From UHGV virus genome UHGV-0180488: a stretch of DNA of 10,275 bases. One strand, written 5' to 3'. Positions 3,145 to 8,464 of the stretch are shown here, one piece after another. The position numbers were made by a program, and so were the translations under genes. The first letter of the stretch is position 1. Each line of letters begins with the position of its first letter. Origin of the DNA: a virus. The notes under the pieces were generated by a model that was given only the letters and a program-made list of their open reading frames with translations, did no database searches and was not told the origin of the DNA.

Positions 3145-4173
3145 TCATGAATCCATGAGGCGGCTATTGGCACCTGCTGTCACACCGCCACGACGAAGAT
3201 AACGCATCAGTGTTTCGGGCTTCTTCCATGTACCTTCCTGCATAATTTCAACCAAAGACACCTGTTTTTCAGCCATATCTATGGCGGCACCAACACGCGC
3301 ACTGTGGCCTGTCCACGTCCGGTAACGGCCTTTATTGGGGGTGGCATCACTCTTACCCAGCAGCGCCCAGGCGTCACTGAAAATCTTCTCCATCGCGGGC
3401 ACGGTTAATGGCGTGGTGGTGATCCGCGCTTTGTTGCTCCGGTGTACTGGCGGGAAAAGTATCGCATCCGGGTGCTCACGTAGTCCGGACGCGTCCAGCC
3501 AGTCATTGAGAACCGCAGTTGTCCAGCGGGAGAGCACCTTATCAAGTCCGGCGGCGGTCGTGATGGTTTTGGTGTGGGATACGTGAAGCGTTACAGTGTC
3601 ACCAGTCTGTTCCAGATCGCGAACACGCACGCGGGACATTTCAGCCATACGCAACAGGGTATTGTAGGCCAGGAACAGAAAAGCCCGGTTGCGCAGATCC
3701 ACCAGCCTGTCAGAGCGGGAGAGCAGCACGTCGAGCAGTTTCAGGTCATCCCAGCGCAGGGGCACTGCCTGGCCTGTGCGTTCGCCTTTTTCGGTTGCAG
3801 CTTCGCGCCGGATGCGCCGCATCGCCAGGGATACGCTTTTGTCATCAGAGAGTTGCGGCAGTCCGCATTGTGACAACAGCATATTGAGCATGGCGTAATG
3901 CTTTTCAATGGTGGTTGAAGCCAGATCCGCATCATGCAGTTGAAGCAGGTATTCGCGGGCAGCTTCCGGGGAGATCGGAAACCACGCAAGACCACGAGCG
4001 TGGCACCATCGCGCCCAGGAGTGAAAGACCAGGCGCAGATCGCGCAGTGTATTAGGTGAGTAAGCACCCTGGTCATTAAGGAACTGCATGAAATTTTTGG
4101 CGGCTTCCTGGTACTCAGCACCAATATCACGAAGAAACATGCCAGGATTACCGGAGATAATAAGTTTACTCAT
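3145..4173 (-). CDS. dre: Cre-family tyrosine site-specific recombinase, Dre-like, 342 aa
   Basis: The translation aligns along its length with P1 Cre as I recall it (e.g. AYNTLLRMAE vs AYNTLLRIAE; GHSARVGAAIDMAEKQVSLVEIMQEGTWKKPETLMRYLR vs GHSARVGAARDMARAGVSIPEIMQAGGWTNVNIVMNYIR, with the catalytic Tyr context conserved), at roughly 40-45% identity by eye. A rox-like site rather than loxP lies 153 bp upstream, which is why I call it Dre (the Cre homologue of phage D6). ATG at 4173-4171 with AGAGGTGA upstream. Confidence 0.92.
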   Translation of the reverse strand: MSKLIISGNPGMFLRDIGAEYQEAAKNFMQFLNDQGAYSPNTLRDLRLVFHSWARWCHARGLAWFPISPEAAREYLLQLHDADLASTTIEKHYAMLNMLLSQCGLPQLSDDKSVSLAMRRIRREAATEKGERTGQAVPLRWDDLKLLDVLLSRSDRLVDLRNRAFLFLAYNTLLRMAEMSRVRVRDLEQTGDTVTLHVSHTKTITTAAGLDKVLSRWTTAVLNDWLDASGLREHPDAILFPPVHRSNKARITTTPLTVPAMEKIFSDAWALLGKSDATPNKGRYRTWTGHSARVGAAIDMAEKQVSLVEIMQEGTWKKPETLMRYLRRGGVTAGANSRLMDS

Positions 4174-4316
4174 GTAATCATTTCACCTCTATAAATTGGT
4201 GTCGCTACGCGAAAAAACAAAAAATGACAGGCTAGTTATCCGTGAGAATTTAAAATTTAAGCCCTTGATTCGAACCATGACTTTTTGAGTCTGTCAATAC
4301 TGATCGTTTGATCATT

Positions 4317-4344
4317 ATTATATACTAACTTTAAATAATGCCAA
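4317..4344 (-). promoter_or_regulatory. Putative sigma70 promoter for dre, with its -35 inside the rox-like site
   Basis: On the minus strand: -35 TTGGCA (4344-4339), 16-bp spacer, -10 TATAAT (4322-4317). Predicted start near 4310, inside the GATC pair at 4302-4305 and 4310-4313. Sequence-only prediction. Confidence 0.35.
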
Positions 4345-4357
4345 TTATCTAAAGTTA
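4326..4357. other. rox-like recombination target site for the Dre-like recombinase
   Basis: TAACTTTAAATAAT (4326-4339), spacer GCCA (4340-4343), ATTATCTAAAGTTA (4344-4357). This is the rox site as I remember it (TAACTTTAAATAATGCCAATTATTTAAAGTTA) with one difference, C instead of T at 4349, which makes the arms imperfectly symmetric. Flanking C (4325) and G (4358) extend the palindrome. Confidence 0.85.
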
Positions 4358-4509
4358 GAAAGGGAGAAAATTTTTTTGAAAAAAAGGATCAAGTGATCAA
4401 AAAAGAAACCGTGCTATTAGTGGTAGTTAGACGCTTAAACCCAGGATTTTGAAGAAGGTTTTCTAAGAAGAACAATAAAAAATTCCATGTTGATCCTTTA
4501 CTCATCGTG

Positions 4510-4537
4510 TTGTACCGCTTAAATTTGAGTACATAAT
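4510..4537 (+). promoter_or_regulatory. Putative sigma70 promoter for the c1-like gene
   Basis: -35 TTGTAC (4510-4515), 16-bp spacer, -10 CATAAT (4532-4537). Predicted start around 4544-4546, about 25 nt before the ATG at 4570. Sequence-only prediction. Confidence 0.3.
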
Positions 4538-4541
4538 TTTA

Positions 4542-4551
4542 TGTTAGAAAA
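4542..4551 (+). promoter_or_regulatory. Operator-like motif TGTTAGAAAA over the predicted c1 transcription start
   Basis: Copy of the GTTAGAAA 8-mer lying 19-27 nt upstream of the c1-like ATG and just downstream of the predicted -10, a position typical of an autoregulatory operator. Confidence 0.35.
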
Positions 4552-4569
4552 CTAATTCGAGTAGGAAGG

Positions 4570-5607
4570 ATGAATAAAAGAACAATCGAGAAAGAGTACA
4601 AACAGTTCCGGTCTGTTGCTGAACGTTGGAAGGAGCTGGTGGTATCAAACTCAGTGTTCCATGACACCAGTTATAACGGAGAGGAATTCCGTCATGTTGC
4701 TTTGACACATGATCCAGACGTCTTGAAAGAAGCCGAAGAATGCCTGGTCGCCTGGAAAGCATTTGTGGACGTATGCCGCAATGCTGGTGGGAAAAAGCTG
4801 AATATCGTTGAGACAGTATATCTTCCGATCCCATTCATCATTGAGGACACGAATCAAAGTACACACATTGTCGTATCTACAGCTTCGACTACCAGAACGT
4901 TCACTCGCGAGAGTTTGCTGAAAAAGTACGATAATGTCATTAAGAAAAGTAAAAAAAGCCCTATCTTTTCTCAGGTCGTAGATGCCCTTGAAAAAGAAAG
5001 ACATTTCTTTGCAATGGAGCCGGAAGGCGAACTCTATCGCGCACGAAAAGATGACTATACCGATGTGGTGCTGACCTCTGATCTCACATCTGACAACACC
5101 CTGTCTCGCTTAAGAGTGGGTGCGCACGGGGCGCTGGTGTTCTCACGCAATAAAGAATTGAAGATCCCTGTGGTTAATAACGTAGATGAACGCCGTAGTA
5201 TTACCGTTTATTCCGGTGTGAAGCCTATCCCTTGTGGCCCGCTGGGCGATTTTAGTCTGTATCGTGTGAACGACATCACCAGGAGTCAGCCAAGCTATGT
5301 GGCTAAGGCCTATATTCTGCGTAGCATTGAGTCCAGAAACCTGAGTTTTAACAACAAAAGCCAGGCGCTTCTGAACTCTACGCCGCCTGAGATCCTCCAG
5401 GTCATTGAAAGAAAGGTGAACGCGGCGAGAGAGGCGCTTATCCGCCTGGAAAAAATGGACATGGAGTTGATTGATGTCATGATGGCATCAGGCGATGACC
5501 TGACAGGTATCCGGCTGACCGATGCACGCAAGAAATACGGCAAAGAAATTGAGGAACGATACGGATACACGTTCAATCAAACAATGTCAGCAACAAAACT
5601 TCGTTAA
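4570..5607 (+). CDS. c1: C1-like phage repressor of lysogeny, 345 aa
   Basis: Position matches the P1/D6 layout (convergent with pacB, divergent from the lox/rox-recombinase unit). Local matches to P1 C1 as I recall it: LNIVETVYLPIPFII vs LNIPKTILYPVPNIL, VNNVDERRSITVYSGVKPI vs INGEFEKAKFSLYDSIEPI, SLYRVNDI vs KIYRLADI. Overall identity is low (perhaps ~30%) and the protein is about 60 aa longer than P1 C1. Confidence 0.7.
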   Translation: MNKRTIEKEYKQFRSVAERWKELVVSNSVFHDTSYNGEEFRHVALTHDPDVLKEAEECLVAWKAFVDVCRNAGGKKLNIVETVYLPIPFIIEDTNQSTHIVVSTASTTRTFTRESLLKKYDNVIKKSKKSPIFSQVVDALEKERHFFAMEPEGELYRARKDDYTDVVLTSDLTSDNTLSRLRVGAHGALVFSRNKELKIPVVNNVDERRSITVYSGVKPIPCGPLGDFSLYRVNDITRSQPSYVAKAYILRSIESRNLSFNNKSQALLNSTPPEILQVIERKVNAAREALIRLEKMDMELIDVMMASGDDLTGIRLTDARKKYGKEIEERYGYTFNQTMSATKLR

Positions 5608-7141: not shown

Positions 7142-8464
7142 TCAGTCTTCCTCTGGCGGGGTAATAGCAATATCGTCGTAAATATCAGCCGTAGCGGATG
7201 GGTCAAGCTCCAGTCCTTCATCATCGGCTTCAAACTCACCAGCTTTTCTTTCACCGTTGGCGTCGTAATCCCCCAGGCCTAACTGGTCAACTACTCTGGC
7301 AACATCTTCACGGCGCTGTTTGAGCCACTCTGAAAGCTCTGCTTTTTGTTTGGCGTACTCTTCGGCTTCACGCTGGATCTGGTCATCATCAACATCACTG
7401 CTGTCAACTACTGGCGGTTCCAGAAGCGTGATAGCTTTCGCCGCACGCGCAGCCAGGATTGCAGGAACACTTACCCCTTGCCGCTCGATGTATTCCGCAA
7501 CACCTATATCGTCCAGTTCTTCGCGCTCGCGCATACGTATAGCGGTTGCAATAACCCTGGCGGCGCGTGCATCAGCGCCAAGACGATAGTCAATCTCTTT
7601 GCTACGTTGCTCTGCCTGTAGGCGTGCAATGTCCAGTTTTTCTCTGGCCTCAGCCTCTTTAAATGCCTGCTGCCGCGCCCCCTGAATCAGTTTTTCCTGG
7701 CCTTGCTGGAGTTTTTGCTCTGTCTGATAAATGGCTGCGAGGCGGCTGATGAAGTCGTTCATGTAATAGGCGGCATCCTGCATGAGGCCGCAGAGACGCT
7801 GGGCCGGGTGTATCCCTTCCGGCTCGCCATCGCCTAAAATATCAATTTCTTTACGTAGCCGTGCCGCCTCCATGTCTACAATTGACTGGTATTCTATGGC
7901 GCGTTCCTGAGCCATCAGGATGGCCTTACGCAGATGTTCAGCCGCACCGTTCTGCATCATTTCACGGGCGACATTTTTCGACGGCAAGGTGGCACATTGT
8001 GCTGATTCGCCGTGGATCATTTGCGATGATCTCTGACTTGAAGATGCCTTTTTATCCTTTTCTGGGATCATTTTTGCTTTTTTATCGGCAAATGATCCCT
8101 TTGATAAATCCACTAACTCACTGTTATCAATGGGCTTATCAGCATGATCCGCGTTACGCTTGCGTGGCATCTCCCTGAATTGACTTGTCGCCGGCTTATT
8201 GTCAGTTTTTGTAAATTCTGATTCTTTTCCGCTCGCTCGTTGCTGTTTTTTTGTCCCACCAGCACGGGGTTGCTGGCGTGTTCTGGCGCGGTTCTTTGAT
8301 GGTTTAACTTTGGCCTGCACCTCATTTTTTTTCATATTGAGATGCTTTCTGGCAGTGTTGAAACTAAGGCCATTTTGTTCACAGTATTCCTTTACCGTGA
8401 TCCCTTTTTCCTCTTTCAGCGCCAGAAACCGGGCACGATGCTCTTCCCAATTAACCAGTGTCAT
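7142..8464 (-). CDS. pacA: Terminase small subunit, PacA-like, 440 aa
   Basis: N-terminal HTH-like segment (ITVKEYCEQNGLSFNTARKHL), a basic low-complexity linker, a coiled-coil-like middle and an acidic C-terminus. It lies immediately upstream of, and is coupled to, the large terminase gene, and contains a GATC cluster like the P1 pac site. Called by synteny and architecture, not by strong sequence recall. Confidence 0.65.
   Translation of the reverse strand: MTLVNWEEHRARFLALKEEKGITVKEYCEQNGLSFNTARKHLNMKKNEVQAKVKPSKNRARTRQQPRAGGTKKQQRASGKESEFTKTDNKPATSQFREMPRKRNADHADKPIDNSELVDLSKGSFADKKAKMIPEKDKKASSSQRSSQMIHGESAQCATLPSKNVAREMMQNGAAEHLRKAILMAQERAIEYQSIVDMEAARLRKEIDILGDGEPEGIHPAQRLCGLMQDAAYYMNDFISRLAAIYQTEQKLQQGQEKLIQGARQQAFKEAEAREKLDIARLQAEQRSKEIDYRLGADARAARVIATAIRMREREELDDIGVAEYIERQGVSVPAILAARAAKAITLLEPPVVDSSDVDDDQIQREAEEYAKQKAELSEWLKQRREDVARVVDQLGLGDYDANGERKAGEFEADDEGLELDPSATADIYDDIAITPPEED
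8015..8149. other. Candidate pac (packaging cleavage) site: cluster of five GATC hexamers inside pacA
   Basis: GATC at 8015, 8028, 8066, 8094 and 8146 (five in 135 bp against about 0.5 expected), in TGATC/GATCA contexts that resemble the TGATCA/G elements of the P1 pac site. The rest of the 1.3-kb gene has only two GATC. Confidence 0.45.

Follow-up and report, generated by a model that had tools for sequence, protein, structure and literature searches.

Sauer and McDermott reportedly noted in 2004 that the 32-bp rox site supports Dre recombination by itself; the Dre/rox pair is widely used in genome engineering, and the searchable literature says essentially nothing of its native regulation. 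Dre/rox recombination is established for the phage D6 system (Sauer and McDermott 2004, as cited in PMC4777119), and the 32 bp of rox alone are enough for it, mammalian cells included (PMC4777119). For phage P1, three Dam sites are marked in the cre control region of the deposited record (AF234172). The −35 hexamer (TTGATC) of P3cre (Sternberg's pR1) contains site 3, and site 2 is located 8 bp upstream of site 3, a layout consistent with the title of Sternberg et al. 1986. One cre promoter, P4cre, lies directly upstream of lox and reads through lox toward cre, together with the C1 operator Oc1e, while three more (P3cre/pR1, P2cre and P1cre) are located downstream of lox; no promoter hexamer is annotated within lox, unlike what we describe here for rox. 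P1 also has cra, coi and imcAB, all of which are absent from the window, i.e., the whole stretch of 10,275 nt (virus genome UHGV-0180488) analysed here.

The window is a D6-like, P1-type plasmid prophage, whose control locus is built on three features.

3145..4173, minus strand: dre-like tyrosine recombinase gene (342 aa), assigned from the ORF list, Pfam and identity to D6 Dre
4326-4357, no strand assigned: rox-like recombination site, a 14-4-14 inverted repeat reading TAACTTTAAATAAT GCCA ATTATcTAAAGTTA
4570..5607, plus strand: c1-like repressor gene (345 aa), divergent from dre

The recombinase shares 89% identity with D6 Dre over 342 aa and 42% with P1 Cre, and it carries the Pfam Phage_integrase domain together with a SAM-like N domain. 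The c1-like product shares 69% identity with D6 C1 and is distant kin of P1 C1 (24% over 168 aa), and its counterparts in relatives are labelled 'phage repressor protein'; terminase-like ORFs are found downstream. Between the dre ATG (4173) and the c1-like ATG (4570) lies a spacer of 396 bp with 31.6% G+C. The rox-like site matches D6 rox (AY753669) at 31 of 32 positions, the single mismatch, in the c1-side arm, being a common natural polymorphism among relatives, and the distance from the rox end to the dre ATG is 152 nt in the window, in D6 and in nearly all relatives. With its 14-bp inverted arms and 4-bp spacer forming a 32-bp site upstream of dre, the locus is assigned by sequence and layout to the Dre/rox family, and, given the D6 experiments cited in PMC4777119, we infer that the Dre-like protein of the window would recombine its own rox. 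Extra Dre half-sites were also searched for, and one match with three mismatches (4533-4546) was obtained, which is within chance.

D6 (AY753669) and the window have the gene order pacB, c1, rox, dre in common; however, their DNA is only 77–79% identical (~77% in the intergenic DNA), so that the window is distinct from D6, and this level of identity is also why a megablast of the phage collection returned no match. The nearest record is an Escherichia fergusonii plasmid (NZ_CP099330.1, locus L137 in our set), with 95.5% identity over the spacer, and related spacers occur in ~190 plasmid records and in 82 of 5426 complete E. coli genomes. Note that 4 of 83 E. coli spacer matches are on records labelled chromosome (e.g., NZ_CP010143.1, 4689478-4689874), where integrated copies or assembly artefacts are possible. 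For comparison, we gathered 36 IMG/VR loci through the recombinase, three plasmid loci, D6 and the E. fergusonii plasmid, and added 20 metagenome loci picked by a rox-only pattern; conservation counts refer to 56 oriented loci, representing 44 unique 259-nt segments, D6 included.

The preliminary description of this DNA had placed the best sigma-70 promoter toward dre across the recombination site, with its −35 on the rox spacer and its −10 just outside the arm. Our promoter scan returned the same two hexamers, with 11 of 12 consensus positions matched, and all other sequence features of that description are likewise present where it put them.

4339..4344, minus strand: −35 hexamer TTGGCA (promoter scan)
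4317..4322, minus strand: −10 hexamer TATAAT, 3 bp beyond the dre-proximal rox arm (promoter scan)
4308..4312, minus strand: predicted dre transcription start zone, placed from the −10 position (−7 at 4317) and giving a leader of ~137 nt

The −35 hexamer consists of the rox spacer (GCCA on the plus strand) plus the innermost base of each arm, and the 16-nt promoter spacer consists of 13 bases of the dre-proximal arm plus the 3 bp that separate the −10 from rox. The recombination site thus spans about −48 to −17 of the predicted promoter, and the near-consensus hexamers stand within the 16–18 bp spacing of sigma-70 promoters. TTGGCA-16-TATAAT toward dre is the only 11/12 match in the 10-kb window, the next best reaching 9/12, and, of 3000 shuffles of the spacer that preserved its dinucleotides, 2.2% (P = 0.022) gave a match of at least 11/12 on either strand, keeping in mind that our shuffle statistics, those on GATC below as well, are post hoc and bear on features chosen by eye.

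TATAAT is found 3 bp beyond rox in all 56 related loci (44 unique), D6 included, with a spacing that is likewise invariant, and it was present in 19 of 19 metagenome loci recovered by the rox-only pattern. When 31 unique sequences with recombinase identities of 72–99% were aligned, TATAAT appeared as an exact 6-nt invariant island amid variable columns: the three bases that precede it vary (GTA, GGC, GGT, GAC, TCA, AGC) and the bases that follow differ by lineage. A rule-based scan of 35 unique relatives recovered the dre promoter in all 33 D6-like sequences, and this same scan gave no other positionally conserved match of at least 9/12 toward dre. D6 itself carries the identical TTGGCA-16-TATAAT over rox, also at 11/12, and its deposited record (AY753669) has no promoter annotated there; full-text literature searches returned no mention of a dre promoter in rox, though an earlier description may exist.

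The −35 behaves differently from the −10, since it follows the changes of the rox spacer. The hexamer reads TTGGCA in 48 of the 56 loci, TTAGCA in three, TTAGTA in two, TTGGAG in two and TGGGGA in one, the last eight keeping 3–4 of the six consensus positions; in dre orientation, the corresponding rox spacers are TGGC (48/56), TAGC, TAGT, TGGA (with an adjacent arm change) and GGGG. These variants should weaken the dre promoter. As the −35 is lost upon a spacer change, selection at these bases therefore bears on recombination and not on the promoter, and recombination specificity appears to take priority over promoter strength at the rox spacer. Taken as a whole, the pattern is that of purifying selection, with the −10 and its spacing retained throughout and the −35 retained except where it tracks the rox spacer. 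At the sequence level, the putative dre promoter agrees with everything we looked for in a sigma-70 promoter.

Variant rox spacers (window positions 4340-4343) were observed in loci L001, L079, L101, L110, L119, L120, L124 and L134, and they may represent natural heterospecific sites that separate plasmid-prophage lineages. In locus L080, a dre-side flank of the window type is joined to the c1-side flank of another lineage (compared with L084 and L086), which suggests that a mosaic junction lies at rox or close to it; such a junction would be expected if prophages sharing a cell are recombined by Dre.

Altogether, we hold it to be fairly probable that a near-consensus sigma-70 dre promoter is interleaved with rox and that Dre bound at rox would repress its own transcription. 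In the proposed mechanism, RNA polymerase and a Dre dimer, whose footprint on rox is taken by homology with Cre on loxP, would vie for the same DNA; Dre at rox would exclude RNA polymerase, resulting in negative autoregulation of dre, and polymerase bound at the dre promoter would in turn hinder recombination. The rox spacer would then have a double duty, setting recombination specificity as well as promoter strength. Since rox covers about −48 to −17, the geometry argues strongly for occlusion of the dre promoter by Dre; that the promoter fires, where it starts and in which direction Dre acts on it are predictions.

Further sequence elements are conserved between the dre promoter and the dre gene.

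4292..4297, minus strand: conserved TTGACA, 20 nt downstream of the −10 (alignments)
4203..4216, minus strand: conserved leader block TTTTTCGCGTAGCG, an invariant run, 12 of 12 identical to P1 upstream of cra
4184..4189, minus strand: Shine-Dalgarno sequence GAGGTG for dre, within AGAGGTGAAA, a block common with P1 upstream of cra

Two sequences, TTTCGCGTAGCG and AGAGGTGAAA (window 4203-4216 and 4180-4189, minus strand), are common to the window and to P1 (L115, 163-206), where they lie upstream of cra; therefore, the rox-to-dre leader is homologous to the P1 lox-to-cra interval, with dre in the place of cra. The invariant leader blocks (TTGACA, CCTGTCA and TTTTTCGCGTAGCG) suggest that additional controls likely act downstream of the dre promoter, and TTGACA may serve as the −35 of a weak second promoter or bind a protein. 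As a second-promoter −35, TTGACA (4297..4292) was tried and set aside, given that it has no acceptable −10: TCGAAT, at 18-nt spacing, is not usable because it has no A at position 2. No RNA structure was supported in the ~137-nt leader (z = +0.88; consensus fold of −3.8 kcal/mol with negligible covariation). Two other candidates were discarded by eye, namely a P1-like LexA box (D6-like sequences read ATG-N10-CAG instead of CTG-N10-CAG) and a small ORF from 4314, which is not conserved and meets an early stop in D6.

The first alternative, which we regard as unlikely, is that the resemblance to a promoter simply follows from the AT-rich sequence of the site, dre being transcribed from the conserved TTGACA (4297..4292), from a segment homologous to P3cre (4275..4245) or by read-through from upstream. 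More distant systems bear directly on this point. A scan of genome contigs recovered only distant relatives of the Pantoea/Rahnella type, with 43–49% recombinase identity, and most of the 74 loci from Pantoea, Rahnella, Erwinia and Mixta (L004-L077) have lox/rox-like inverted repeats of 13–14 bp upstream of the recombinase. The arms of this whole family of sites intrinsically read TATAAT or AATAAT (TATAAT in the Pantoea-type loci), the central TTGGCA also occurs in Pantoea sites without a downstream TATAAT, and in one Pantoea-type subgroup a −35 of the form A[TG]GACA abuts the proximal arm and is followed 17 nt on by TATCAT or TATGAT. Promoter-like matches near rox/lox-like sites thus arise easily, because the sites are AT-rich and their arms are TATAAT-like. 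Two closer loci, L112 (1404-1449) and L113 (57–60% recombinase identity), carry a rox-like site, TAACTTTATATAAT GTCA GTTATATAAAGTTA, and a different 11/12 promoter, TTTACA-16-TATAAT, whose −10 coincides with the inner end of the distal arm; they represent a second, independent overlap of a predicted promoter with its site and, like the P4cre of P1 that reads through lox, speak for the dre promoter in rox. The leader hexamer TTGACA is kept even in L112 and L113, which favours transcription from the leader, as does the homology of the rox-to-dre interval to the part of P1 that is home to P3cre. However, the TATAAT of the D6-like loci is located outside rox, is invariant in 56/56 amid varying neighbours and always stands 16 bp from the spacer hexamer; in addition, TTGACA lacks a usable −10, and no other match toward dre combines a score of at least 9/12 with a conserved position. 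These observations argue for the promoter interleaved with rox.

The second alternative concerns the GATC sites of the spacer. Five of them had been reported in the 396 bp of AT-rich DNA, at 4302, 4310, 4387, 4395 and 4492, and all five are indeed present.

4302..4313, no strand assigned: pair of GATC sites, 8 bp from start to start, TGATCGTTTGATCA, covering −3..+9 of the predicted dre promoter; specific to one sub-lineage
4387..4398, no strand assigned: second pair of GATC sites, again 8 bp from start to start, GGATCAAGTGATCA, around −77 to −88 of the predicted dre promoter; in 2 of 56 loci
4492..4495, no strand assigned: GATC directly next to the −35 of the candidate c1 promoter
4497..4525, plus strand: candidate c1 promoter TTTACT-17-TAAATT, an 8/12 and thus weak consensus match

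On the c1 side, the candidate promoter is positionally conserved in 31 of 34 unique relatives. A perfect inverted pair of TTAGAAAAC (4458-4466 and 4544-4552) brackets it and could represent C1 operators of D6 type; as an operator repeated across the window, TTAGAAAAC was rejected, since only the two intergenic copies are found, which is not above chance. The window has no match to the P1-type C1 operator (consensus ATTGCTCTAATAAATTT) with up to three mismatches. Among the GATC sites of the spacer, the one at 4492 is retained most widely, yet it is lost in several lineages.

It had been suggested that the Dam methylation logic of P1 cre may be conserved here. In the corresponding alternative, Dam methylation of the GATC pairs would set dre expression as at P1 cre, for example through a burst from hemimethylated DNA after replication or through SeqA silencing; we judge this to be quite improbable. 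In its favour, when the spacer was shuffled 5000 times with its dinucleotides preserved, at least five GATC turned up in 0.28% of the shuffles (mean 1.06 per shuffle), one or more pairs spaced by exactly 8 bp in 0.3% and two pairs of this spacing in none, while the whole window shows no GATC enrichment (44 versus 36.6 expected). The P3cre −35 is overlapped by P1 Dam sites 2 and 3, which are likewise spaced by 8 bp; P1 and the window have the double TGATCA motif with this 8-bp spacing in common, and GATC-N4-GATC-N4-TTG, read in recombinase orientation, keeps one and the same register in both. Moreover, the closest relative, from E. fergusonii (L137, 228-242), carries a 15-mer, TGATCATTTGATCAA, that is identical to P1 at 15 of 15 positions (L115, 97-111), a match that outscores all 500 shuffles.

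Against this stands, above all, the distribution of the sites among relatives. A GATC at 4310 occurs in 6 of 56 loci and one at 4302 in 25, where it toggles with GAAC even among near-identical relatives; both are present in 4 loci and the c1-side pair in 2, while 29 loci (D6 and 28 others) lack any GATC in the first 60 bp downstream of the rox centre. Spacers of relatives hold 0–3 GATC each, near expectation, and that of D6 holds one, which is not near the promoter. In addition, both hexamers of the conserved dre promoter are free of the sites (4313..4310 covers −3..+1 and 4305..4302 covers +6..+9), unlike Dam-responsive promoters of the P1 P3cre/pR1 or IS10 pIN type, in which a GATC falls in or overlaps the −35 or the −10. 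In P1, the Dam sites are in or beside a −35 located ~87 bp downstream of lox, whereas in the window they are at the start site; the 'same logic' is therefore not positionally conserved. The double-GATC motif TGATCATTTGATCAA is also inverted relative to the recombinase gene between P1 and the E. fergusonii relative, and an alternative global alignment places the Dam-bearing −35 of P1 opposite TTCGAATCAAGGG (4275..4263), which has no GATC. Of the likeness to P1, the 8-bp spacing of Dam sites 2 and 3 and the 15-mer identity hold up, while the position of the GATC sites and their conservation among relatives do not.

Given the P1-like spacing and the 15-mer of the closest relative, the start-site GATC pair is probably not random in the sub-lineage of the window. 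The GATC pairs are best described as an add-on of this one sub-lineage (the window, E. fergusonii CP099330, L078, L080, L119 and L124), outside the conserved design. They may, speculatively and by analogy with P1 Dam sites 2 and 3, give that sub-lineage Dam or SeqA sensitivity; the Dam aspect is probably a lineage-specific detail, and P1-style methylation control would not be a conserved property of the D6 group. Elsewhere in the window, five GATC fall within 135 bp (8015-8149), mostly as GGATCA or TGATCC, inside a pacA-like ORF of 440 aa (7142..8464, minus strand); this cluster resembles the Dam-dependent pac site of P1.

Finally, it is very improbable that TATAAT and its adjacent bases form an accessory element of recombination or architecture (an extra Dre contact or the site of a bending protein), since the invariance of TATAAT beside rox and a weak likeness of this flank to a rox arm (9/14 by eye) are outweighed by a c1-side flank without mirror-image conservation in the alignments of relatives, a one-sidedness that is therefore directional, fits a −10 and argues against an extended recombinase site, by the sufficiency of the 32-bp rox for Dre recombination (PMC4777119), by the lack of further arm-like sites beyond chance and by a conserved island that is exactly a consensus −10 at canonical spacing.

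A dre promoter interleaved with rox and repressed by Dre would have several consequences. If Dre represses itself through rox, this would be feedback control of a Cre-type resolution system in a minimal form, and it would explain a low recombinase level in a low-copy plasmid prophage. A practical warning also follows for users of the system: a native rox with only 9 bp more on the dre side comprises a near-consensus E. coli promoter directed outward, and spacer edits made for heterospecific rox sites change a −35 element too. A broader reading, to which we give little credence, is that the dual use of the rox spacer, for specificity and as a −35, lets spacer variants create heterospecific lineages and retune dosage at the same time under Dre feedback, with one sub-lineage having a P1-type double-TGATCA Dam module; if true, this would suggest that a methylation-sensitive element is portable among the control regions of the Cre family.

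The autoregulatory design proposed here is plausibly one of a known kind. In Tn3 and gamma-delta, the resolvase represses its own promoter through its site at res, and Lane et al. reportedly described in 1986 the self-repression of the F-plasmid ResD (D protein) at rfsF. In these systems, as in the window, the recombinase site and the core promoter of the recombinase gene occupy the same DNA, and the expected outcome would be alike, namely negative feedback in plasmid multimer resolution. In contrast, the Tn3 resolvase is a serine recombinase that works with accessory sites, whereas the window has a simple Cre-type site with the predicted −35 in the crossover spacer itself.
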